A DNA stretch of 64,000 bases, taken from positions 37,044-101,043 of the forward strand of contig CAZAFB010000003.1 of NCBI GenBank assembly GCA_964484505.1, in the 5' to 3' direction. The notes under the pieces were generated by a model, which was given only the letters and a program-made list of their open reading frames with translations, was not told the origin of the DNA and searched no databases. The position numbers and the translations under genes are program-made. Below are positions 4,610-52,725 of this stretch, piece by piece. Position 1 is the stretch's first letter. Every line of letters starts with the position of its first letter. The stretch comes from an uncultured Bdellovibrionales bacterium. Its GTDB lineage: Bacteria > Patescibacteriota > Minisyncoccia > Moranbacterales > GWC2-37-73.

Positions 4610-7003
<2,394 letters not shown>

Positions 7004-7060
7004 GTTGGATAAAATAATTAAGCGTATTTATTAAAAACGCTAAATTTATAATCAGTGTAT

Positions 7061-7220
7061 TTTGAATTCAAAATTCACCTAATTGCCTAATTCACCTAAT
7101 AAAATTTCAAATAATCAAATAAGACATATTTTAGATATTTGTGAATTTGGCATTTTATTAGATGAATTAGGTGAATTAGAAATTTGGTGAATTTGTAAAA
7201 ATGAATTTGGAATTATAAAC
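7061..7220. repeat. Palindromic element family B, copy 2
   Basis: AAATTCACCTAATTGCCTAATTCACCTAATAAAATTTCAAAT is followed by ATTTGGCATTTTATTAGATGAATTAGGTGAATT. It lies between atpD and atpC. Confidence 0.65.
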
Positions 7221-7818: not shown

Positions 7819-8265
7819 ATGAAAATTCCCTTCAAATTTAAAAACATCCACAGTTGTGAAGCGGTAGTGCTCACTTGCATCGACTTCCGCTTTTGGCGGG
7901 AAACGCTGGAATTCATTGAACAAGAATTGAAACTTACGACATTTGATTTCCCTTCTCTTCCAGGTAGTGCAAAAGCTATTAATGAGTGTGTGAAGAATGG
8001 CGATTTGGCTATGTCTTGCATAAGCGTTCCTTGTGACCTGCACCACGCTAAAAAAATTGTGATTGTGAATCATGAGGATTGTGGTGCCTATGGTGGCTCG
8101 AAAAAATTTGAAGGCGACAAGATTGCGGAGCAGGCTTTTCATGAAATGGAATTGCGCAAAGCCAAGGACGCGATTTTGAGCAAATATCCGGAAAAAGAGG
8201 TAGTTTTAGTTTATGTAAAATTGGTTGATGATGGTGAAACTATAGAATTTGTGGGGGTTGACTAG
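7819..8265 (+). CDS. Small beta-class carbonic anhydrase-like protein
   Basis: Motifs C-I-D-F-R and H-E-D-C-G-A-Y-G-G match the beta-CA zinc ligand pattern (CxDxR ... HxxC). It is short, about 149 aa. Confidence 0.5.
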   Translation: MKIPFKFKNIHSCEAVVLTCIDFRFWRETLEFIEQELKLTTFDFPSLPGSAKAINECVKNGDLAMSCISVPCDLHHAKKIVIVNHEDCGAYGGSKKFEGDKIAEQAFHEMELRKAKDAILSKYPEKEVVLVYVKLVDDGETIEFVGVD

Positions 8266-8364
8266 ACATCGATTTCGTGTATAATATTTAGGCTGTTTGC
8301 TTCTAGCATGCAGCCTTTATTGTTTCGAGAGTTCTTTTAACCCCAGCAAAAGGAGGATACAAAG

Positions 8365-8640
8365 TTGAACATTATTGAAGATGGAAAGAAGAGAGTGGTA
8401 ATTTTCTGTTTCAATGGAACCGAATACGGTCCTGTTGTCAGGAAAGAAATGGAAGTATTGGGTTTCTCTGTTATGATGTACTATGAAAATGCCGCACCGG
8501 AAGTTATCATGGCTGCAATTGAACAATTGCATCCCGTGGATAATCTCGATGTGGGCTTCGTGGTCGTATATCACAAAAAAATGGGAAAAAAATCGCTCCT
8601 TTTAAGAAGGAGTGTGAGGGAAAAAAAGTTGTTTTTGTGA
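8365..8640 (+). CDS. Hypothetical small protein with a TTG start
   Basis: ORF preceded by AAAGGAGG. No recognisable domain. Confidence 0.3.
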   Translation: MNIIEDGKKRVVIFCFNGTEYGPVVRKEMEVLGFSVMMYYENAAPEVIMAAIEQLHPVDNLDVGFVVVYHKKMGKKSLLLRRSVREKKLFL

Positions 8641-8775: not shown

Positions 8776-8912
8776 AAAAATATGCCCGGTAGTGAAAATT
8801 CAAAAATAATCGCAGGAGCACGAAATTTTTGTATTATTGAATAAATTTTTAAATAAAAAATAAACAAATGAAATACTTTTGGGCAAAGCCCATTTGAATT
8901 TCTACTACCGGG
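8776..8912. repeat. Family C element with 20-bp terminal inverted repeats (CCCGGTAGTGAAAATTCAAA ... TTTGAATTTCTACTACCGGG) ending 1 nt before the ATG
   Basis: The two ends are near-perfect reverse complements. The last 41 nt are identical to the copy at 47857-47985. It contains a GGGCAAAGCCC mini-hairpin. Confidence 0.65.
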
Positions 8913-8913
8913 T

Positions 8914-10017
8914 ATGGAAACAACAAAAAAAATTCTTAAGATTGCTTTGATTATCATCATTGCGATTGTTTTGGCGTTCGCATTACTTCTGGCTTTGCGT
9001 GTTGCCAAAAACGAGAAGGGCGGTTCGCAAACGGGATATGATTCCGCTGGAACAATGCCGATGTCGATAGACGCGGGCAGAAGCATGATGGGCATTGAAA
9101 ACGGCGAAGGGATGGCTGATTTCAATATGCCAAACCCTGCATTGCAAGAAAGTGCTGCGATGCCTGCGCAGAAAGGAGAAGTTGTGGCGAGAGATGTGCA
9201 AGTCGCAGAGAAAAAAATCATCAAAGACGGATATATAAATGCCCAAGTGGATAATGCTGACAATGCAGCCAGGGATATTTCCGGAATTGCCAAACGTTTG
9301 GGCGGTGATGTCGAATCGATGAATTTCCGCAAGACCGCACAGAACGTAAAAAGCGGCACGATTGTCGTACGTGTTCCGTTTATCAATTTCGATACGGCTT
9401 TTGAAGAAATCAAGCAAGTTGCAACATTGGTCAGGAGCGAATCGGCTAATGCGCAAGATGTGACCAGTCAAGTTGCCGATTTGGAAGCTCGCCTCAAAAA
9501 CAAGCAGGCTGAAGAAGAATCTTTTCAGCAAATTTTGGATAATACGAACGGCAAGACCGAAGATGTTTTGATGGTAACGCAAGAACTATCTCGCGTACGC
9601 GGGGAAATTGAACAACTTGAAGCGCAGAAGAAATATCTTGCATCGCAAACGGATATGTCCACGATCACGGCAAATATTTCCGAAGATGTGACGGTTGGCA
9701 CCGCGACCTCCTGGAGGCCATGGCAGATTGCCAAGACTGAATTCGCCAGCATGCTTAAAGATTTGCAAAAATTGATTGGAGCATTGATTGTGATTGTTGT
9801 TCGTCTCACTCCGATACTCCTGGTGTTTATTCTGTTCTTCCTGATTGTTTTTTGGGTAGTGAAAGCTATTATTAAATCAATTTTTTGGAAAAAGAAGCAA
9901 AAGGAGATGCAACAAAAAACAGAAGAACCGATAACTCCTGCTGGCCCTGAGTCGATAAAGAAAGCTCCACGCACAAGAACGATAGCTGCAAGACGTATTA
10001 TTTCACGAAAAAAGTAA
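8914..10017 (+). CDS. DUF4349-like membrane protein (N-terminal TM, central domain, C-terminal TM)
   Basis: This architecture and central region are typical of DUF4349 proteins. Confidence 0.6.
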   Translation: METTKKILKIALIIIIAIVLAFALLLALRVAKNEKGGSQTGYDSAGTMPMSIDAGRSMMGIENGEGMADFNMPNPALQESAAMPAQKGEVVARDVQVAEKKIIKDGYINAQVDNADNAARDISGIAKRLGGDVESMNFRKTAQNVKSGTIVVRVPFINFDTAFEEIKQVATLVRSESANAQDVTSQVADLEARLKNKQAEEESFQQILDNTNGKTEDVLMVTQELSRVRGEIEQLEAQKKYLASQTDMSTITANISEDVTVGTATSWRPWQIAKTEFASMLKDLQKLIGALIVIVVRLTPILLVFILFFLIVFWVVKAIIKSIFWKKKQKEMQQKTEEPITPAGPESIKKAPRTRTIAARRIISRKK

Positions 10018-10065
10018 CTCGCCAATGCAGAGCTAATCAAGAGCGAATAGGTGTTAATTTATATA

Positions 10066-10100
10066 AGAGCGGGTGATGAGCCCGCTTTTTTACTCGCTCT
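10066..10100 (+). terminator. Rho-independent terminator
   Basis: AGAGCGGGTGATGAGCCCGCTTTTTTACTCGCTCT: a GC stem followed by a T-run. Confidence 0.7.
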
Positions 10101-10265
10101 TACAAAATGTATGTTTTCAAGACGGTCGTCATCTCAGCATAAGTTATAATTTATAAGCTGAGCGGGATATTAAGTATCCAAACTGGGCATTTATGTCTGA
10201 ACAGGAAGTGTGCTGAAATTGCAGTGTTGAATTTGACCTTATTATAGCCAAAAATCAAGCTACCA

Positions 10266-10294
10266 TTGACTTTTTGGCTTTTTTGTGCTAAAAT
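10266..10294 (+). promoter_or_regulatory. Sigma70-type promoter TTGACT-N17-TAAAAT
   Basis: Exact -35 TTGACT, a 17-nt spacer and -10 TAAAAT about 100 nt upstream of the 10397 ORF. Confidence 0.6.
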
Positions 10295-10396
10295 AGATGG
10301 TCATGGGATTGTCCCGTGGCGTGTATTATATCAAAGGTCATTTGGACTTAGCCAAAGGGCCTCGGGTCCTTTGAAAACTAAATATGGAGGTGGGTT

Positions 10397-11080
10397 ATGG
10401 CAATCGCCAAGTTTATGCTCGAAGCTTTGGGCGAGGGAGCTTTCCTGCAGGTTTTAAAGAAAGCATGGGGTTGGGCAAAGAAAATATGGCTTGCCTTTGG
10501 AATTGGAGCTAGTGCAAAGGATGAAATTTCCAAGCGACTGGTTGGTTCGAAAGGTTGGGAAGATGAAAATTTCTTTGCGCTTGATCTTGCGGAGGCTAAC
10601 CTTTCCGCGGATAAGAAAAAAATGATTTGCGATGCGGTAAGAATGGTTGAACAATATGATGATGTTTCTGGCACTCAATGGGCCAAAAACTTTCGCATAA
10701 TTGTGACCATTCGAGACAGAGAGCCAAGTCCTGCTGGAATAAGGTCTGGTACAATTATTCTTCAAGATCTTGGCTCGACTTGCAATAGTGTGCAAGAAGT
10801 TTTTTGTCATATTATTGCATTTGGTATTTCTCAAGACCCTTCTTCGACATTGGAGAAGTTTATAAATTTTTCCAAAACTTCCGTTTGGCCATTTATTAGT
10901 GAAAAGGCGGGCGGAGTTCGCGATGCTCTTGATTCTGGCGTAACAAGGCTGGAAAATTTGCGGCGTGACATCGAGGAAGATGAAAGAACTGAAATGATAA
11001 GGGTAAGCCGTATAGCTGATCCTAAGAAAAGGGTAGTTGCAAAAGCTTGGAATTGGCTATCAAAATACATTTTCAACTAA
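10397..11080 (+). CDS. Hypothetical protein, first gene of a G+C-richer cassette
   Basis: Strong SD (TGGAGGTG) before the ATG. No recognisable domain. Confidence 0.5.
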   Translation: MAIAKFMLEALGEGAFLQVLKKAWGWAKKIWLAFGIGASAKDEISKRLVGSKGWEDENFFALDLAEANLSADKKKMICDAVRMVEQYDDVSGTQWAKNFRIIVTIRDREPSPAGIRSGTIILQDLGSTCNSVQEVFCHIIAFGISQDPSSTLEKFINFSKTSVWPFISEKAGGVRDALDSGVTRLENLRRDIEEDERTEMIRVSRIADPKKRVVAKAWNWLSKYIFN

Positions 11081-11095
11081 TAAAAGGAGGCTGTC

Positions 11096-12172
11096 ATGAT
11101 AGGAAGATTTTTTGCAACGATGTTTTTTTTGGCCAACAGGGAAGTAGAAAGGATGCGCAGGTGTTTGGTTGCAGTGTTTTTCGCAACCATTCTCGGCACT
11201 ATCCCAATCCTGCTTTTTCACCCGAAAATCGGTGTTTGTTTGTGGATAACTCTCGTGCCGCTGATTTTCTCGGCGTACAAACTTTTTTCCATCCGCCGCT
11301 TTATCTTTGCCGATATCGCTGGCGAGGTTTTGGAAGCGCTTCATATGCGGGTTGATGATCCGGCGAATCCAAATCCATCGACTAGTATAGTTGACAATAA
11401 GTTCATCCGAATTTATTTGTCGATAATCTCTGGCATTTTTGCCGCTCAAGTGGGATTATTCCTGCTTCTCCCGCTCTATGTTAATTATACAGTGGGAGGG
11501 TTCACTGCACTGATTCTTATTGCCATGATTTCGGCACTGATGATTATTGCAAGCCACGGATTTTTTGCCAGGACATACATGGCACTCGCGGGAATCGCTT
11601 GTGTTGTATATGTGATTGGGCTGGTGCTGTATCTGTTTCCGCAGATATCGTACTACTTGCCACTCAGTAGAATTAATGTTATATCCGTTTCGTCTGCCAA
11701 AATCATTCGAGAAACGGATGAGTTGCGCAAGCAACAAATTGAGACCCTTAACAACGGCAGGTTAAGGGCCATAATGGAATGGCAACGTGAAAATCCTACA
11801 AAGGACTTGCCTGAAGAATATAAGCAAGTCCAAGAAGCTGCGGGAAAAGGGGTGACCGTCGAGCAGTATTGGCAGCAAAAAGCTGTGGCGGCAGAAACTG
11901 CTAAGAAAGCAGCGGAAAAGGCTGATGCTGATCGAAAATTGGCTGAGGCTAAGGCCAAGGCTGATCGGGAGGATATTGAGAGGGAGGCGGCGAAGATCGA
12001 GCAGGAAAGAAACGCCGCCAAAAACCCAATCCAGGAGACGCCGGAAGAACTTCGGCGTCGCCTGAAGGCCATCCAAAGGGCGAAGGAATTGAGGCCCGGC
12101 CCTGATGGTTTATACCATATCGGGGGCGGGGTTCCGCAACCGAAACCTCCTGTAGCAGTGTATGTAGATTAA
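11096..12172 (+). CDS. Hypothetical multi-pass membrane protein with a C-terminal Ala/Lys/Glu-rich coiled-coil and a Pro-rich tail
   Basis: 4-5 hydrophobic helices, then AKKAAEKADADRKLAEAKAKADRED, ending PQPKPPVAVYVD. SD AAGGAGG. Confidence 0.5.
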   Translation: MIGRFFATMFFLANREVERMRRCLVAVFFATILGTIPILLFHPKIGVCLWITLVPLIFSAYKLFSIRRFIFADIAGEVLEALHMRVDDPANPNPSTSIVDNKFIRIYLSIISGIFAAQVGLFLLLPLYVNYTVGGFTALILIAMISALMIIASHGFFARTYMALAGIACVVYVIGLVLYLFPQISYYLPLSRINVISVSSAKIIRETDELRKQQIETLNNGRLRAIMEWQRENPTKDLPEEYKQVQEAAGKGVTVEQYWQQKAVAAETAKKAAEKADADRKLAEAKAKADREDIEREAAKIEQERNAAKNPIQETPEELRRRLKAIQRAKELRPGPDGLYHIGGGVPQPKPPVAVYVD

Positions 12173-12635
12173 AACACTGCTAAGTGAAAAATTGAGGCGT
12201 GGGAGATGTTAACTGACATCGACCGCGCCTTTTATTTTGCAAAGAAATTTCTTGAATTTCTTTGCACGCGGACAGATGCGGACGAGACGCAGAATTACGC
12301 GGAAAAATATCAAAACCGATTCGAATCTACGAATATCCGCAAATAAACTAAAAATGCAAAATACTTCGATACTCGAAAGTATCAAAGTATTTGACCAATT
12401 TATTTTTGAAGAAATTTTTTGATAAAAAAACAAAGCCATATGGCCTTGTCCTTATGTGCCGCGGGAGAGACATCTCACTCGCTCTGACTTTCAGTCTGAG
12501 CTCTTTGAAAACCCACGGTTTTCAAGACTTTCCTTCACGGGAAAACTCAGGTTTTCCCGACCCCTTTCCTGGTTCGAGTCTCCAAAGAAATAAAATTTAA
12601 AAGCCAACTATAAATAGTTGGCTTTTAAATTTCAG

Positions 12636-12719
12636 TACCGCGGGAGAGACTCGAACTCTCATGATATTGCTATCGCTGGATTTTGAGTCCAGTGCGTCTA
12701 CCAGTTCCGCCACCGCGGC
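12636..12719 (-). tRNA. tRNA-Leu(CAA), type II with a long variable arm
   Basis: Manual fold: acceptor GCCGCGG/CCGCGGT, D-loop GAACTGGTAGA, anticodon stem CTGGA/TCCAG with loop CTCAAAA, variable arm GATAGCAATATC, T-arm GAGAG-TTCGAGT-CTCTC. Confidence 0.75.
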
Positions 12720-12866
12720 GAGTATTGATATTTAGGCTATTCCAAGCCTTTTTACCTCTATATGATAAACGATTGAAAAGAGATTGTCAATGTGATAATA
12801 TAGATACGCGGTTAAGGTTATGGTAACGAGGCCAGTATCGTAAAAGGGTGATGATAACACGTCAAA

Positions 12867-13271
12867 ATGCAAGAACCAAAACAAACAATTAAAAGTTTTC
12901 GTGATTTGGAAGTTTATAGAAATACATATGATGCTAGTATTGTGGTTATGAAAGAAATAGTGCCGTTGCTTCCGGATTCGGAAAAATATGATCTTAAAGA
13001 TCAATTATCCAGATCAAGCAAAGCTGTTCCGCGGCTCATTGCTGAGGGTTATGCAAAAAGACATCAGAAAGCAGGATTCCAAAAATATCTAGACGATGCC
13101 ATGGGAGAATGCAATGAGACCATAGTTGGACTTGAACAATGTTGTGATATTTATGATATCAATAAAGAAAAATGCCAAAAATTAATTGACACATATGATA
13201 AGTCTGGAAGACAATTATACAGATTGTCAGAAGCATGGAGTCGATTTAAAGACGGAAGACGTAACCATTAA
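12867..13271 (+). CDS. Four-helix-bundle protein (23S rRNA intervening-sequence protein family)
   Basis: FRDLEVYR ... DLKDQLSRSSKAVPRLIAEGYAKRHQKAGFQKYLDDAMGECNETIVGLE matches the IVS four-helix-bundle family. It is flanked by an imperfect inverted repeat, GGTTATGGTAACGAG and ATCGTTACCGTTACCC. Confidence 0.7.
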   Translation: MQEPKQTIKSFRDLEVYRNTYDASIVVMKEIVPLLPDSEKYDLKDQLSRSSKAVPRLIAEGYAKRHQKAGFQKYLDDAMGECNETIVGLEQCCDIYDINKEKCQKLIDTYDKSGRQLYRLSEAWSRFKDGRRNH

Positions 13272-14213: not shown

Positions 14214-15137
14214 ATGGCTGCTCAAAATTTTGGTCTCGGCAGGGGATTATCATCACTTATACCTAACGCAGGCACTGCGCCACAGACAGATGCGCCGGTA
14301 GGAAAACGTCCCGTGATCGGCGAAGATGATTCGATTCGCGGTGACAAATATGTCGTGGAAATCGATATTGACTCAATTGTGCCAAATCCGCAACAGCCGC
14401 GCATCCGTTTTGACGAGGAAAAATTGGCCGACCTGGCTTCATCAATCAAAACACATGGAATCATTCAGCCGTTAATAGTAAGTCGCGATGGCAATCAATA
14501 TGAAATTATTGCCGGTGAGCGTCGTTATCAGGCGAGCAAAATTGCCGGACTGAAGAAATTGCCGGTGATTGTTCGTGAAGCCGGGGAATTAGAGAAGCTT
14601 GAGTTGGCGATAATCGAAAATATTCAACGTCATGACCTTAATGCAATTGAAGAGGCGAAAGCATATCAAAAATTGATAGATGAATACCAAATGAATCAGG
14701 AGGAGGTTGCTTTCAAGATGGGGAAGAGTCGCAGCTTGGTAGCTAATAAAGTGCGTTTGTTGTCGCTGCCTGTGGAAATTCAACGGGCGCTTATTGAAGG
14801 CAGGATTACCGAGGGTCATGCAAAGGCGATTTTGGCAATTTCCAACCCTGAAAAACAACGCGCTCTATATGAACTTATTCTCAGAGATAATTTGACCGTA
14901 CGCCAAACTGAAGACAAGACCAAAGATATTTCGGTCAAACCGCATAAACGTGTCGTCAATGTCGACCCTGCATTAAAAGAAATTGAAGAAACTCTGATTG
15001 GCGCTCTTGGCACGAAAGTTAAAATTTCCAAAGCCGGCAATGGCGGGAAAATCGTGATTGAATATTATTCGCAAGAAGATTTGGATGCGCTACTAAATAA
15101 GATACGAACCACTGAAAATATAAGAACCACTGATTAG
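14214..15137 (+). CDS. parB: Chromosome partitioning protein ParB/Spo0J
   Basis: GLGRGLSSLIP, the ParB box IAGERRYQASKIAG and an HTH. The last codons and the TAG stop lie inside the repeat-family-A terminus. Confidence 0.9.
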   Translation: MAAQNFGLGRGLSSLIPNAGTAPQTDAPVGKRPVIGEDDSIRGDKYVVEIDIDSIVPNPQQPRIRFDEEKLADLASSIKTHGIIQPLIVSRDGNQYEIIAGERRYQASKIAGLKKLPVIVREAGELEKLELAIIENIQRHDLNAIEEAKAYQKLIDEYQMNQEEVAFKMGKSRSLVANKVRLLSLPVEIQRALIEGRITEGHAKAILAISNPEKQRALYELILRDNLTVRQTEDKTKDISVKPHKRVVNVDPALKEIEETLIGALGTKVKISKAGNGGKIVIEYYSQEDLDALLNKIRTTENIRTTD

Positions 15138-15619
15138 CACGTGATTAAAATGATTGCACTGATCATAAATGCAGCATGAAAAAATATGTTGATGACAAAT
15201 ATTATAAATCTGAAGTAACCGGCAGCATAATTAACTGCGCGCAGAGAGTTCATCGCGAGCTAGGCAATGGATTCCAAGAAGTCATTTATCAAAAAGCTTT
15301 AGAAATAGAACTAAAACGTGCTGGCCTAAAGTTTGAACGAGAAAAGGAGATGGCTATTTATTATGAAAACGAACTCATCGGAACCAGGAGAGTTGATTTT
15401 CTTGTTGATAAGGATATTATGGTTGAACTAAAAGCAACTACAAAACTGGAAGACGTCAATGTGGCACAACTCATAAACTATATAGAGGCATATAAGGTAA
15501 AAGTAGGCCTGCTTATAAACTTCGGCTCAAAAAGTTTGGAAGTGAAACGTTATGTAAAATGATCCCTATCACGTGTAATCAGGGAAATCAGTGCTAATCA
15601 GTGGTTCTCTAGTGGTTCT
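15122..15619. mobile_element. Family A element carrying a GxxExxY (PD-(D/E)xK-like) gene between 21-bp terminal inverted repeats
   Basis: Left end AGAACCACTGATTAGCACGTG (15123-15143). Right end CAGTGCTAATCAGTGGTTCTC (15589-15609), plus a partial second copy TAGTGGTTCT. 19 of 21 positions match as a reverse complement. Confidence 0.55.
15176..15562 (+). CDS. GxxExxY family protein (PD-(D/E)xK nuclease-like fold)
   Basis: NGFQEVIYQKALEIELKRAGLKFEREKEMAIYYENELIGTRRVDFLVDKDIMVELKA ... GLLINFG matches the GxxExxY family. Confidence 0.75.
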   Translation: MKKYVDDKYYKSEVTGSIINCAQRVHRELGNGFQEVIYQKALEIELKRAGLKFEREKEMAIYYENELIGTRRVDFLVDKDIMVELKATTKLEDVNVAQLINYIEAYKVKVGLLINFGSKSLEVKRYVK

Positions 15620-17093
15620 TTTTCAGCGCTCTTCTTATGTGGGATTTTGCCACAGAAGTGCGCGCGAACTTAAGCCAGTCGCCATTGGGCGATTTTCTAT
15701 CTTTGGAAGTTATAATCTCGATCACTTGTCCGTTTTTGATGATGTGATCCAATGGTATCATCTTCCCGTCAGCCTTGGCGCCGACCGTGTGGTGTCCGAT
15801 TTCGCTGTGGATGGCATAGGCGAAATCTATAGCGGTGGCTTCCTCCGGAAGATCGATAATATCGCCGCGGGGAGTGAATGCAAAAATGTGATTGCGAAAA
15901 AAATCTATTTTCAAGGTTTCCAAAAATTCTTGATCATCTCGACCTATTTCCGTTTGCCACTCACGCAATTGTTTGACCCAAACCAATTCTTTTTCGGTAA
16001 CAAGCGGCTTTTTGCTCATGAATAAAATATTTTTCCAGCTTTTTTTGGCTTTTTCACTATAAATCCAATGTGCTGCAATACCGAACTCGGCTTCATCATG
16101 CATTTTCTGAGTGCGTATTTGTACTTCCAAAATTCTGCCTTCCGGACCGAAAATAGTGGTGTGAATGGATTGATATCCATTTGGTTTAGGCAGGGATATA
16201 TAGTCCTTTATTCTACCGATCATGGGGCGATATTTTTTGTGAACTATGCCCAACGCCTCATAACAATCAGTAACTTCCGGTACTATTATGCGCACTGCTG
16301 AAAGGTCATAAATTCTGTTTATATCCATGTCGTGCTTCTTGAGTTTTTCAAAGAGACTATAGAGACTTTTGGCTCTCCCGTGAATTTCCAAGACGCTTAT
16401 ACCAGCATTGGCCAATTCTTTGCGAAGCTGTTTGATCGCCTGATTCACATAAACCTCTCGCTCCTTGTAACTTTTTTTAACCAATTCCTCGGCGTAGACA
16501 TAATTTTCATGGTCAAGATATTTAAAAGAAAGGTCTTGCAATTGAGTTTTGATTTCGCCGATTCCCAAACGGTTTGCCAGGGGCACAAAAACTTCCATGG
16601 TCTCGCGGGCGATGCGCTGCTGTTTTTCCGGGGGGTTGTGTTCCAGTGTCCGCATGTTGTGCAGGCGATCCGCCAGTTTTATGATAACGACTCGGATATC
16701 CGCAGCCATGGCCAAAAACATTTTGCGCAGATTTTCCAAAAAATATTCTTCATGGGAACCACGCAATTTCAATTTGCCCAATTTGGTTACGCCGTCAACC
16801 ATGTGAGAGATTTCACTATCGAAATTCCTTTCAATTTCTTCCAGAGTATATGCTGTATCTTCGGGAACATCATGAAGTAATCCAGCAGCTATTGTTTTAG
16901 CTCCCATACCTATTTCAGCCAGAATTTTCGCTGTTGCCAGGGGATGTTGAATATAGTCGTCGCCACTGCGTCTTTTTTGACCGCAGTGCGCTTTTTTGGC
17001 AACCTCAAAAGCCTTGCGGATTAAGGCATCTTTTTGCTTGTCCAAAGGGAATTTAAACGCTTTGATAATATCTTCAATGACTAATTGCTTCAT
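15609..17093 (-). CDS. Bifunctional (p)ppGpp synthetase/hydrolase, RelA/SpoT family, no ACT domain
   Basis: HD domain (HDVPED), synthetase domain and TGS domain. The stop codon lies in the family A repeat. Confidence 0.9.
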   Translation of the reverse strand: MKQLVIEDIIKAFKFPLDKQKDALIRKAFEVAKKAHCGQKRRSGDDYIQHPLATAKILAEIGMGAKTIAAGLLHDVPEDTAYTLEEIERNFDSEISHMVDGVTKLGKLKLRGSHEEYFLENLRKMFLAMAADIRVVIIKLADRLHNMRTLEHNPPEKQQRIARETMEVFVPLANRLGIGEIKTQLQDLSFKYLDHENYVYAEELVKKSYKEREVYVNQAIKQLRKELANAGISVLEIHGRAKSLYSLFEKLKKHDMDINRIYDLSAVRIIVPEVTDCYEALGIVHKKYRPMIGRIKDYISLPKPNGYQSIHTTIFGPEGRILEVQIRTQKMHDEAEFGIAAHWIYSEKAKKSWKNILFMSKKPLVTEKELVWVKQLREWQTEIGRDDQEFLETLKIDFFRNHIFAFTPRGDIIDLPEEATAIDFAYAIHSEIGHHTVGAKADGKMIPLDHIIKNGQVIEIITSKDRKSPNGDWLKFARTSVAKSHIRRALKKNH

Positions 17094-41288: not shown

Positions 41289-41401
41289 AATATCTTTCAG
41301 CACAGTGTGGAAAGGAAAGGGGTCGGGAAAACCTGGGTTTTCCCGTGGCGGAAGTACTGAAACCGCTGGGTTTCAGGGAGCGAAGCGACTCCACAGTGGG
41401 C
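41279..41401. repeat. Hairpin-rich insert at the 3' end of rpsI, bounded by the 13-bp direct repeats CTCCACAGTGGGC
   Basis: Direct repeats at 41266-41278 and 41389-41401. Between them lie GGGAAAACCTGGGTTTTCCC and CTGAAACCGCTGGGTTTCAG hairpins. The 38-bp core recurs at 12533-12570 in inverted orientation. Confidence 0.55.
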
Positions 41402-41532: not shown

Positions 41533-41561
41533 TTGACTTTTTCACCAGATAGGTGTATAAT
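41533..41561 (+). promoter_or_regulatory. Sigma70-type promoter TTGACT-N17-TATAAT
   Basis: Perfect -35 and -10 with a 17-nt spacer about 80 nt upstream of the 41640 ORF. The ATTGACTTTTT context is the same as the promoter at 10266. Confidence 0.65.
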
Positions 41562-41639
41562 ACTAAGTCGCATAAAAACGGCATTTAGTGCCTTAAAAAT
41601 CCAAAGTCGGCGGACTGAAAACGCAGAAGGAGGATTCAA

Positions 41640-42242
41640 ATGAAAAGAACTAGAAGGACCAAACTTGAGATGGGGATGAAAAATGATATCCAAAGAGCTG
41701 GCGTGGTTTTTTCCTTGTATGGGACATTAATTCAGTTTATTGAAAGAATGGCTGATTTATTGGCAAAAAGCAAAACAGACGTTGTCTTATTGAAAGATAT
41801 TATTCCTGAAAAAAACGATCAAGCGACCATTTTCAGAATGATGAAAGAAGTTAATTTACCAGGCTGTGCGATTGATTTTATTGCTTGGATTAATCTGGCG
41901 AAAGTAGTAACGGATAATTGGAAAGATCTCGTCAGTAGTGATATTGTCCAGGTTTTTAAAAATATTATTGTTCATCCCAGCGTAAAGAAAACGGACATGG
42001 TAAATATACTACATTTATTTTGTTCCAACAGCTTAATGTTTTATCACTACTTGAACTTTGAGATTCAAAAAAGATTATTCCCGTTCGAAGGATTCGAGGA
42101 ATTGGATGAGAATTCTCTTATGACACTGATTAGACTCAGTGGTTTGGCTTCCAAATATAAAGAGTTGTTTTTCTGGGAGCAAAGAAATGGCAGGAAACAT
42201 CCTGCTCGCGATATGATATTGGAGGATATATTGAAGGGATAA
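41640..42242 (+). CDS. Hypothetical protein
   Basis: Strong SD GAAGGAGG. No recognisable domain. Has its own consensus promoter and terminator. Confidence 0.5.
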   Translation: MKRTRRTKLEMGMKNDIQRAGVVFSLYGTLIQFIERMADLLAKSKTDVVLLKDIIPEKNDQATIFRMMKEVNLPGCAIDFIAWINLAKVVTDNWKDLVSSDIVQVFKNIIVHPSVKKTDMVNILHLFCSNSLMFYHYLNFEIQKRLFPFEGFEELDENSLMTLIRLSGLASKYKELFFWEQRNGRKHPARDMILEDILKG

Positions 42243-51329: not shown

Positions 51330-51578
51330 ATGCAGTGTAAAAGAGAAGAGAATTTGGCGAATTGCCCATGCAGTTATCCTGACTGTCCGCGAAAGGGCAA
51401 GTGCTGTGATTGCGTGAGTCATCATCGGGAAAAGGGTGGGATCCCGGCGTGTTTTTTTCCGATTGAGGCGGAAACGGAAACAATGAATGATCGCAGCGTG
51501 GAAAGTTTCATCAAGGCGTATCAGAAATCAAAGGGAACGAATAATGCGGAGGTTCTTAATGTGGATGAAATTATCTGA
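51330..51578 (+). CDS. Small Cys-rich protein, putative metal-binding
   Basis: CPCSYPDCPRKGKCCDCVSHH cysteine cluster. Conserved-looking but of unknown function. Confidence 0.45.
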   Translation: MQCKREENLANCPCSYPDCPRKGKCCDCVSHHREKGGIPACFFPIEAETETMNDRSVESFIKAYQKSKGTNNAEVLNVDEII

Positions 51579-52725
51579 TTATACACGAATCTACAAATTA
51601 ACTGCGAATCTACAAATGAAAAATCTTTTGATAAAAGTGGCGATTTGGTTGGTGGTGGTGAATGTGTTTGCGTTTGCCGCGCTGAATCGTTTTAATCTTG
51701 AGCCTGACACGGCATATACTTGGATCACACCTTGGAGTTTTCCGGTGCCGCACGAATCAGGATTGGTGGACATGCATAATCGCTGGGATTCCTATTGGTA
51801 TCACGACATCGTGCAGAATGGCTATTATTCACGTGGTGATGGGCAATTAGCGAACGTGGTTTTCTTTCCGCTTTATCCATTCCTCATCAAAGTGATGATG
51901 CTTTTCACTTTTGGTAATTTTTCTTTGGCTGGGTGGCTCGTGAGCACCATTTTCCTTTTTCTTTCGTGCGCATATATCTATAAATTCGTCAAAGAATTTC
52001 ACAAAGATGTCGATCCGGAATTGCCGGTTTTGCTCATGCTCATTTTTCCGACAGCCTTTTTTCTGAATGTCATTTACACTGAATCGACTTTTTTGTTCAT
52101 GACGATCGCGACTTTTTACTGGGCATTCAAAAAGAATTTCAAACTAGCGGCATTGTTTGCATTTTTGGGCGCGCTGACTCACAGTAATGGCATGTTTTTG
52201 GCGCTGCCGGTTTTGTGGAAAATGTGGGAGAATGTCGGCTGGAAAAATTGGAAAAGCTTGCTTTCTTGGAAATCTTGGCCGATTTTAGTTGCACCATTGG
52301 GGACGTTTCTTTTCGTGGCATATGATTATTTGAAATTCAAAGATCCGATGCTGTTCTTCAAAATCCAGAGCGCTTGGGGAAGATCATTTTCCATCAATTG
52401 GGATCATTTCTCCCTTTTTTCACACCCGTCGATCACCAACATGTATATCGATATTGCGCTGGCAATATTCATTATTGCAGCGACAATATTGATTTGGAAA
52501 AAACTTTCGCCGCTTTATGCGCTGTTCATGTCCGCCACGCTGTTTGCGGCATTTTCATCCGGAACCTTGATGAGCGTGGGGAGGTATAGTCTGACAATGT
52601 TTCCACTTTTCATATTACTAGCCAAAATCAAAAATAAAAACGCCATGTTCGCCTGGTGTCTTATCTCAGGTTTGTTTTTCGCTCTGGATATTATTTTGTG
52701 GGTGAATAATTATTGGGCGGGGTAA
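51547..52725 (+). CDS. Integral membrane glycosyltransferase (GT-C, DUF2029/mannosyltransferase-like)
   Basis: Multiple TM helices; WDSYWYHDIVQNGY and FFPLYPF motifs typical of PIG-V/GT87-like GT-C enzymes. The start is uncertain (51547 to 51568). Confidence 0.5.
   Translation, partial: RRFLMWMKLSDYTRIYKLTANLQMKNLLIKVAIWLVVVNVFAFAALNRFNLEPDTAYTWITPWSFPVPHESGLVDMHNRWDSYWYHDIVQNGYYSRGDGQLANVVFFPLYPFLIKVMMLFTFGNFSLAGWLVSTIFLFLSCAYIYKFVKEFHKDVDPELPVLLMLIFPTAFFLNVIYTESTFLFMTIATFYWAFKKNFKLAALFAFLGALTHSNGMFLALPVLWKMWENVGWKNWKSLLSWKSWPILVAPLGTFLFVAYDYLKFKDPMLFFKIQSAWGRSFSINWDHFSLFSHPSITNMYIDIALAIFIIAATILIWKKLSPLYALFMSATLFAAFSSGTLMSVGRYSLTMFPLFILLAKIKNKNAMFAWCLISGLFFALDIILWVNNYWAG

Follow-up and report, generated by a model that had tools for sequence, protein, structure and literature searches.

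In the sap genes of Campylobacter fetus and the slp genes of Lactobacillus, which encode surface layer (S-layer) proteins, one strong promoter and a conserved 5' region serve divergent coding bodies. Their long 5' untranslated region (UTR) with a 5' hairpin goes together with a very stable and abundant mRNA, and homologous recombination within the conserved 5' segment exchanges one coding body for another. A lifestyle of attachment to other cells is assumed for bacteria of the Candidate Phyla Radiation (CPR)/Patescibacteria, and to our knowledge almost nothing is known about the molecules at their cell-cell interface or about CPR gene regulation. Here, we describe a locus on a 64-kb stretch of DNA (the window), which is part of a 111.5-kb Joint Genome Institute (JGI) metagenome contig from a Parcubacteria/Moranbacteria-type CPR bacterium and carries the ATP synthase operon as well as parAB, relA, topA, and dprA. 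The locus, at positions 10264 to 12172, comprises two genes, A and B, which an earlier note on this DNA had taken for a G+C-rich, horizontally acquired module, for example a toxin/immunity or defense pair. We find that A and B form a transcription unit native to the Moranbacteria-type Parcubacteria lineage, and we lean toward reading it as a strain-variable envelope module that is highly expressed from a fixed platform.

A promoter, a leader, A, B, and a terminator, all on the plus strand, make up a single bicistronic unit that is complete in itself. On the left, it is bounded by the intrinsic terminator of the upstream DUF4349 gene (10066 to 10092), which has a hairpin of −16.2 kcal/mol (z-score −3.6) followed by a T-run. 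The sigma-70-type promoter (10266 to 10294) consists of TTGACT (10266 to 10271), a 17-nt spacer, and TAAAAT (10289 to 10294) with an extended −10 TG (10286 to 10287), and it matches the consensus at 10 of 12 positions. Transcription is predicted, from the position of the −10 element only, to start at approximately 10301, giving a leader of ~96 nt. Gene A (10397 to 11080) is an open reading frame (ORF) for 227 aa that belongs to an orphan family and is preceded by the Shine-Dalgarno (SD) site GGAGGTG (10386 to 10392), while the ORF of gene B (11096 to 12172; 358 aa) is preceded by AAGGAGG (11084 to 11090), a site that is kept in relatives. The unit ends with an intrinsic terminator at 12194 to 12238 (−30 kcal/mol; z-score −6.2) followed by TTTTATTTT. 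In relatives, B is set apart from the following gene, C, by a terminator and by another promoter (TGnTATAAT); thus, A-B is a separate bicistronic unit everywhere.

The SD sites are unusual in this genome. Among the 31 JGI-called genes of the window, an SD core of at least 5 nt was found for only 4, three of which are A, B, and a nearby gene for a 91-aa protein at 8365; the genes of the ATP synthase operon, parAB, relA, topA, and dprA have none. The description of this layout in the earlier note, that is, two ORFs with strong SD sites among genes that mostly lack them, a textbook promoter, a structured leader of ~100 nt, strong terminators on both sides, a nearby tRNA-Leu gene, and products consisting of an unknown soluble protein and a multispanning membrane protein with a charged tail, holds in all these respects.

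The coding part of the unit is replaced between strains at sharp junctions. All contigs used for comparison are metagenome assemblies. One of them, a conspecific contig of 3.7 kb (L022) recovered in two samples, is 99.4% identical to the window over positions 8888 to 10392, from the end of the DUF4349 gene through the intergenic region, promoter, and leader to the SD site of A, and 97.8% identical over positions 11942 to 12565, which comprise the final 76 codons of B, its terminator, and downstream DNA. Between these two regions, positions 10393 to 11941, which start directly 3' of the SD site and comprise the whole of A and the first 282 codons of B, are replaced by 1,542 bp without DNA similarity, with junctions at 10392/10393 and 11941/11942. 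The replacing segment encodes a soluble protein of 239 aa (A') and the membrane part of a second protein (B') with at least four transmembrane (TM) helices and a beta-rich domain. B' has its own AAGGAG site and is fused in frame to the same B tail (11942 to 12172; G+C content 0.567), which is common to both alternative alleles with ~96% amino acid identity. In hhalign comparisons, neither A' with the A family nor the N-terminal part of B' with the B family gave any sign of homology.

A second, independent exchange is found between two further contigs, L030 and L011, which are 83.5% identical up to the start codon and become similar again just after the B stop codon. Between these points, L030 has an unrelated pair of 230 and 254 aa, which swaps exactly A plus B. 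The membrane protein of this pair (B'') is a homolog of B' from L022 (35% identity; E value 7e-23) and not of B, and the second module type is therefore present in both of the genomic contexts in which A-B occurs (see below). In a third case, L028 shares its leader with L019 and L001 and continues into a different first ORF; because this contig ends 38 codons into that ORF, it documents the 5' junction only. The alternative cassettes keep the same architecture, i.e., a soluble, helical protein of ~230 aa and a membrane protein with four to five TM helices and a C-terminal domain. Divergence is also pronounced where A and B are homologous: between the window and the syntenic contig of a close relative (L010), identity amounts to 97.9% for AtpD, 88.7% for AtpC, and 85.3% for the Pro_CA_2 protein vs 43.2% for A and 53.8% for B. 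These sequence comparisons show that the coding cassette is hypervariable and that nonhomologous genes with a shared architecture replace it as a unit.

An ordinary membrane operon that is specific to the lineage and drifts fast could give a similar picture if the swaps were assembly chimeras or the result of paralogue confusion. The metagenomic origin of all comparison contigs and the short length of L022 are in line with this explanation. It has to contend with the recovery of L022 in two samples, and with junctions that fall at the same functional points (the SD site/start codon and the end of B/its tail) in independent lineages from different studies. Moreover, both alleles retain intact reading frames, SD sites, and a tail that is fused in frame, and the 64-kb window contains no second copy of the leader or the tail that could cause misjoining. 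We therefore consider this explanation very improbable. We note that a JGI-called ORF of 46 codons (12206 to 12346) starts within the hairpin of the A-B terminator and is probably not a gene; its conservation in L022 merely reflects the 98% identity of the DNA.

The promoter and leader, behind which these alternatives lie, are the most conserved part of the locus. We found the same promoter, leader, and A-B unit in ~15 Moranbacteria-type lineages. The elements of an extended −10 sigma-70 promoter, i.e., a TTGACA-like −35 element, a 17-nt spacer, TGn, and a TATAAT-like −10 element, are all present in the predicted A-B promoter, are kept in 15 lineages, and place it among very few extended −10 consensus promoters in the 64 kb. 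The spacer is also conserved in ~15 lineages, as CTTTTTTGTGCTA. Together with the −35 element, this spacer, and the −10 element, the conserved parts comprise AGAYGGT around the predicted start, two hairpins, the box YCTTTGAMAA, and the SD site. When L028 was compared with L019 and L001, the promoter-leader was 95 to 96% identical over ~175 bp vs 76 to 77% for the adjacent PMT_2 genes. The platform thus appears to be under strong purifying selection and more constrained than the neighboring coding DNA.

Hairpin 1 (10300 to 10320), which has a 9-bp stem and a 3-nt loop, lies at the predicted 5' end of the mRNA. In the alignment of 15 lineages, 98.5% of the cells are paired and five of the nine base pairs have compensatory changes, while slid controls gave 34 to 48% pairing. 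G-U pairs in this hairpin fit an RNA on the plus (sense) strand. RNAalifold agrees with hairpin 1 and supports only this hairpin, which is conserved and stable and is a candidate 5'-terminal stem-loop. Hairpin 2 (CAAAGGGCC-tcg-GGTCCTTTG; 10353 to 10373) was identified from single-sequence folds and alignments; a hairpin is present at this position in all lineages, with varying sequence and length. The near-invariant box YCTTTGAMAA, which in the window has the form CCTTTGAAAA (10368 to 10377), has C, TTTGA, and AA as invariant columns, and the combination of the box and hairpin 1 occurs only once in the window, at this leader. Searches of the leader against Rfam 15 gave no match at the gathering threshold; at E values of up to 10, only weak, chance-level matches were obtained within 10000 to 12900, none of which was in the leader.

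We also considered that the leader may act mainly as a sensor, either as a riboswitch or as an attenuator bound by a protein or small RNA, in which the box would be the site for the ligand or regulator that controls access to the SD site. This explanation concerns the role of the leader only and is compatible with the A-B unit being a variable envelope module. In its favor, the box is invariant while its surroundings change. Moreover, in minimum-free-energy folds, the partner of the box is the SD region in several lineages and an upstream CAAAGG in the window and L010, suggesting alternative pairings. L010 also reuses the leader in front of a second, different gene, as expected for a regulon. 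Across all lineages, however, single-sequence folds gave neither a box pairing nor a box/anti-SD pairing that holds throughout, no alternative structure is common to all, and RNAalifold backs hairpin 1 only. The lack of an Rfam match and the variable middle part, which is short and simple for an aptamer, also argue against a sensor. Weighing these points, we regard a sensory function as possible but doubtful.

A profile of the promoter and leader detected one copy per locus in all lineages except L010. In this contig, a second copy (6427 to 6530), ~85% identical to the first, directly follows B and heads a different membrane protein gene (MLEMIIGLFFCFILFPLAVYF...) that is cut by the contig end; this copy may belong to a small regulon or to a tandem cassette array. 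In a promoter pattern scan of metagenomes, 9 of 15 matches fell within coding sequence by chance and were set aside. Two further features of the leader were considered and rejected. A leader peptide could start at an ATG at 10297 and continue for a 24-codon frame that ends at the TGA of the box in the window and L001; it was rejected because this ATG lies 5' of the predicted site of transcription initiation and lacks conservation in L011 and L010. A second promoter, with TTGACA within the box, lacks a correctly spaced −10 element in most lineages.

The design that combines a strong promoter, a structured leader, and a strong SD site recurs for a few genes of this SD-poor genome. A gene for an orphan protein of 200 aa without a Pfam match (41533 to 42242) has a TTGACT-17-TATAAT promoter with TGT, a hairpin leader of ~80 nt, and GAAGGAGG, and a gene at 51559 to 52725 (GGAGGT; 388 aa; no Pfam match) may follow a similar design. 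The gene for the 91-aa protein (8365 to 8640, within the region 8259 to 8640) is preceded by a promoter of its own (TTGACT-N14-TGTATAAT), a hairpin at the 5' end, and AAGGAGG. Its positional counterpart in L010 (2104 to 2512) also encodes 91 aa and has no detectable similarity to it, while the flanks are 85 to 89% identical; this gene resembles A-B in its style of expression and seems to be a further small unit that is hypervariable.

Homologs of A and B are rare and confined to one lineage. The A family comprises 8 clusters among 5.8 billion proteins, and the B profile detected only 59 family members among 1.84 billion representative proteins. All matches with a named source are from metagenome-assembled genomes (MAGs) of Parcubacteria ("Parcubacteria group") or "Candidatus Moranbacteria/Moraniibacteriota," and A and B are always adjacent. 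Two genomic contexts were found. In L010, the gene order is the same as in the window, with atpC, the Pro_CA_2 gene, the gene for a 91-aa protein, the DUF4349 gene, A, and B. In the commoner context, found in five GTDB genomes and several metagenome contigs, A-B follows two divergently oriented PMT_2 glycosyltransferase genes; the upstream genes are GT4, GT4, holB, and ftsQ, and the downstream genes are C, D, a DUF5663 gene, a gene for an acidic protein of 146 aa, and an ATPase gene. C is a charged coiled-coil protein of 500 to 770 aa, and D is a coiled-coil/membrane protein of 730 to 1,017 aa. In comparisons of L018 and L019 with L001, the flanking genes and the ATPase are 86 to 98% identical, while A is 58 to 62%, B 49 to 53%, and D 54 to 58% identical and similarity between the C proteins is undetectable; for L018 vs L001, the values are 97.6% for the ATPase, 86 to 88% for the PMT_2 proteins, 62.5% for A, and 53% for B, and C is again undetectable. 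Literature searches combining Moranbacteria with hypervariable returned 16S studies only.

The ATPase of this cluster has 828 aa, is membrane anchored, and contains TrwB_AAD_bind, TraG-D_C, and DUF87 domains; it also has a weak PDB match to TrwB. In the relatives, there is no virB4 gene nearby. Orphan homologs of VirD4-like type IV coupling proteins (T4CPs) are abundant in Patescibacteria, where they number in the thousands and are mostly unlinked to virB4, and their exaptation has been suggested (PMC12102498). The cluster ATPase fits this group. When A, B, the alternative cassettes, and the cluster neighbors were searched against Pfam, NCBIfam, PHROGs, and PADLOC, the only domains found were DUF5663 and the T4CP-like domains of the ATPase; B itself has no significant Pfam or NCBIfam match to components of type IV secretion systems (T4SSs), and DUF5663 is not mentioned in the literature searched. 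After the B stop codon, several lineages have a conserved AAGGAGGTGA, sometimes with an upstream CACCT pairing, ahead of the terminator (L011, 5297 to 5330; L001, 11600 to 11625; L030, 4270 to 4300). This element could be an SD-like stabilizer or a tiny ORF.

Based on hydropathy, A lacks TM segments. It has a conserved amphipathic N-terminus (EALGEGAFL..L..AW.WA), and its structural model consists of 11 helices in an all-alpha arrangement (predicted local distance difference test [pLDDT] score, 67; predicted template modeling [pTM] score, 0.64). B contains a conserved domain of ~255 aa with the motifs LPLYVNYT.GG and WQ..NP and five predicted TM helices at residues 23 to 41, 46 to 64, 106 to 124, 134 to 152, and 163 to 181, which are followed by long charged helices and by the helical tail, rich in Ala, Lys, and Glu and ending in a Pro/Gly-rich stretch. 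We note that an A homolog of Parcubacteria GW2011_GWD2_38_11 (P0002; L001, 10001 to 10771) is annotated as "Antifreeze glycoprotein." This name is misleading and derives only from a loop insertion of ~45 residues that is rich in Pro, Ala, Val, and Thr.

The main rival explanation is a toxin/immunity (bacteriocin-like) pair or an antiphage defense pair, in which one protein would harm competitors or infected cells, the membrane partner would protect or sense, and replacement would reflect an arms race. Orphan, fast-evolving genes in a tight two-gene operon with strong expression signals fit such a pair, and nonhomologous alleles with sharp junctions behind a conserved platform are typical of polymorphic toxin and defense hotspots. 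In sequence searches against Pfam, NCBIfam, and PDB, we found no toxin or immunity domain in A, B, A', B', or the L030 pair, and A has neither a signal peptide nor a delivery domain. PADLOC detected no defense domain in A, B, and the alternative cassettes; its sole match, to a methyltransferase (E value 0.0018 over 36 residues), is at chance level. A phage origin likewise found no support in PHROGs, in IMG/VR scans for A, B, and B', or in a BFVD fold search. In addition, the polarity of variation is opposite to that in contact-dependent inhibition (CDI), Rhs, and LXG systems, as it is the 5' part that is variable here, with conservation in the 3' tail, and the unit occupies a fixed core position near envelope genes and a conserved ATPase in ~15 lineages rather than lying in a defense island. 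We therefore regard the suggestion of a toxin/immunity or defense pair as rather unlikely.

An origin as a foreign, G+C-richer island, recently inserted next to the tRNA-Leu gene, was suggested by the SD sites and the consensus promoter, which are unusual for the genome, and by the tRNA-Leu(CAA) gene itself (12635 to 12719, minus strand), which lies 460 bp downstream and has a 13-nt exact copy of its 3' end at 12459 to 12471. The region 10264 to 12172 has a G+C content of 0.451 compared to 0.413 for the window and an average of 0.423 ± 0.033 for ORFs of at least 150 aa. However, A is average (0.418; z-score −0.09), and B (0.477; z-score +1.6) is on a par with atpD and atpE (0.483). The excess in B is confined to the last 231 nt (0.567), which encode the low-complexity tail rich in Ala, Glu, Lys, Arg, Pro, and Gly. 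For the segment 10393 to 11941, which is the part that varies, the G+C content is 0.436 and the tetranucleotide distance from the window mean has a z-score of −0.78. The composition is, therefore, typical. Near the cassette, whose neighbors are the DUF4349, 23S_rRNA_IVP, and ParA/ParB genes, there is no integrase or mobility gene. Nor is the cassette bracketed by an att repeat, as the sole repeat of the tRNA 3' end (13 nt; 12459 to 12471 = 12638 to 12650) brackets only 166 bp beside the tRNA; the tRNA gene is a neighbor of the cassette only. Because L010 has A-B at the same site, the cassette is not a recently acquired foreign island at this tRNA gene, and the family, its promoter and leader included, is confined to this one lineage of bacteria. 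We give an insertion of this kind hardly any credence.

Thus, typical composition and syntenic orthologs, the two observations that the earlier note itself had named as speaking against its proposal, are what we found. The proposal of horizontal acquisition fails as regards a foreign origin and stands as regards an exchangeable module, given the swap in L022. Similarly, the promoter, the leader, and the SD sites are real and unusual in this genome, yet they are not hallmarks of foreign DNA, as no other part of the locus is so well conserved. In a genome with few SD sites, a textbook promoter combined with SD sites does not necessarily point to foreign DNA.

The surroundings of the tRNA-Leu gene contain several features of their own. 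A structured segment of ~150 nt downstream of the gene (12440 to 12600, minus strand; −54 kcal/mol; z-score −3.8) holds the 13-nt copy of the tRNA 3' end and has a terminator-like hairpin at its end. Its twin-hairpin core (12509 to 12570) is 85% identical to 41313 to 41373, which lies just after rpsI in the opposite orientation; this element may be a repetitive extragenic palindromic (REP)-like intergenic element, a remnant tRNA fragment, or an att scar. Immediately 3' of the tRNA-Leu gene, a perfect 19-bp palindrome (AAATTTAAAAGCCAACTAT/ATAGTTGGCTTTTAAATTT; 12593 to 12632) is probably a bidirectional terminator. The 23S_rRNA_IVP (four-helix-bundle) gene between the tRNA-Leu gene and parA (12867 to 13271) has a G+C content of 0.348, and of 0.237 at third codon positions, and is compositionally more atypical than the A-B cassette.

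Two types of repeated sequences were noticed elsewhere in the window. A PDDEXK_3 gene (15176 to 15562, within the region 15119 to 15608) is flanked by perfect inverted repeats of 18 nt (15123 to 15140 and 15591 to 15608). The flanking sequences also occur side by side without the gene at 841 to 938 and, inverted, at 2410 to 2510, in intergenic regions of the ATP synthase genes, and a homolog of the gene is inserted within the ATPase cluster of L019 only (15412 to 15813). This pattern suggests a small mobile PDDEXK_3 element with derivatives resembling miniature inverted-repeat transposable elements (MITEs). In the ATP synthase operon, a direct repeat of ~150 nt with 82% identity is present before the OSCP gene (1873 to 2020) and before atpC (7047 to 7205), with further related copies near these two.

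Returning to the native A-B operon as a highly expressed, strain-variable envelope module, we envision the following mechanism. B would be the membrane anchor, with a cytoplasmic N-terminus and its variable C-terminal tail or domain outside, as predicted from five TM helices and the positive-inside rule, and A would be its covarying cytoplasmic or peripheral partner, attached via the amphipathic N-terminus. High and stable expression would result from the strong promoter together with the 5' stem-loop and with SD sites of a strength that is rare in this genome, the stem-loop acting as a protector against 5'-end-dependent RNases of the type described for ompA and aprE. Homologous recombination, acting in the conserved leader and in the 3' flank (the B tail or the B-C intergenic region), would swap the alleles, and the B tail would serve as the 3' homology arm. 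The diversity of alleles would be maintained by frequency-dependent selection at the envelope, imposed by phage or by host or partner recognition. Because, in most relatives, A-B stands at the head of a cluster that also encodes two further hypervariable proteins of the coiled-coil/membrane type and a highly conserved orphan VirD4/TrwB-like ATPase, it most likely forms the variable membrane-proximal part of this envelope apparatus. In the lineage of the window, A-B would have relocated alone, without the ATPase cluster.

Several observations weigh against this explanation. The model of A is only moderate (pLDDT 67) and has no fold match, and the model of B is poor (pLDDT 55), so that the topology of B is derived from hydropathy alone. 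A, B, A', and B' have no match in Pfam, NCBIfam, PHROG, PADLOC, or PDB. The folding z-score of the whole leader is weak (−1.7), with covariation supporting hairpin 1. C, D, the DUF5663 gene, the gene for the 146-aa protein, and the ATPase gene are not present in the 64-kb window or the next 10 kb; a VirD4-like ATPase is encoded in the A-B cluster of relatives, and the tie of A-B to the ATPase apparatus is known from these relatives only.

A more far-reaching proposal, which we offer tentatively, is that, in Moranbacteria-type CPR bacteria, a fixed and highly conserved extended −10 promoter and a structured leader of ~100 nt with the invariant CUUUGAMAA box take up nonhomologous two-gene envelope modules from the start codon onward, and that the resulting idiomorph-like alleles set host, partner, or phage recognition in connection with an orphan VirD4-like ATPase. 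A-B is a candidate specificity module in that it is fast evolving, strain replaceable, membrane anchored, and mostly linked to orphan VirD4-like ATPases. The leader-promoter could be used as a search handle for all cassettes that lie behind this leader, and it could give these uncultured bacteria a first strong signal for expression that is defined.

A-B can be likened in part to sap/slp loci, toxin/immunity systems, flexible genomic islands, orphan T4CP genes, and stem-loop stabilizers. As in sap and slp, the A-B alternatives share one conserved promoter and 5' region. A-B differs in that the 64-kb window has no silent cassettes and the variation is between strains, in that it consists of two genes, and in that B is not an S-layer protein but a polytopic protein of the membrane; the sequences are unrelated. 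With CdiA-CT/CdiI, Rhs, and LXG systems, A-B has in common nonhomologous modules, a sharp junction next to a conserved segment, covarying two-gene units, and high diversity between strains. In A-B, however, toxin/immunity domains and orphan modules downstream are lacking, and the conserved part is the 5' UTR plus the 3' tail, while A and the N-terminal 282 codons of B are variable.

The replacement-type flexible genomic islands for O-antigen, capsule, and phage receptors resemble A-B in their fixed core position, in having divergent or nonhomologous alleles within a species, in their relation to the envelope, and in frequency-dependent selection by phages as the likely driver. A-B is tiny in comparison (1.5 kb and two genes), has no glycosyltransferases of its own, and has its junctions inside the transcription unit, at the SD site and in the tail of a gene. 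The orphan T4CPs (PMC12102498) are relevant in that A-B heads a cluster that ends in a T4CP-like ATPase in most relatives; the window is without this cluster, A and B match no T4SS profile, and that study does not include A, B, or the leader. Among the stem-loop stabilizers, ompA, aprE, ermC, and the STAB-SD of cryIIIA share with A-B a stable hairpin a few nucleotides from the (in A-B, predicted) 5' end and a very strong SD site, to which the A-B leader adds the invariant box and hairpin 2, which have no counterpart there. Overall, a replacement-type variable locus on a fixed platform is already known, while the leader motif without an Rfam match and the orphan protein families are new.

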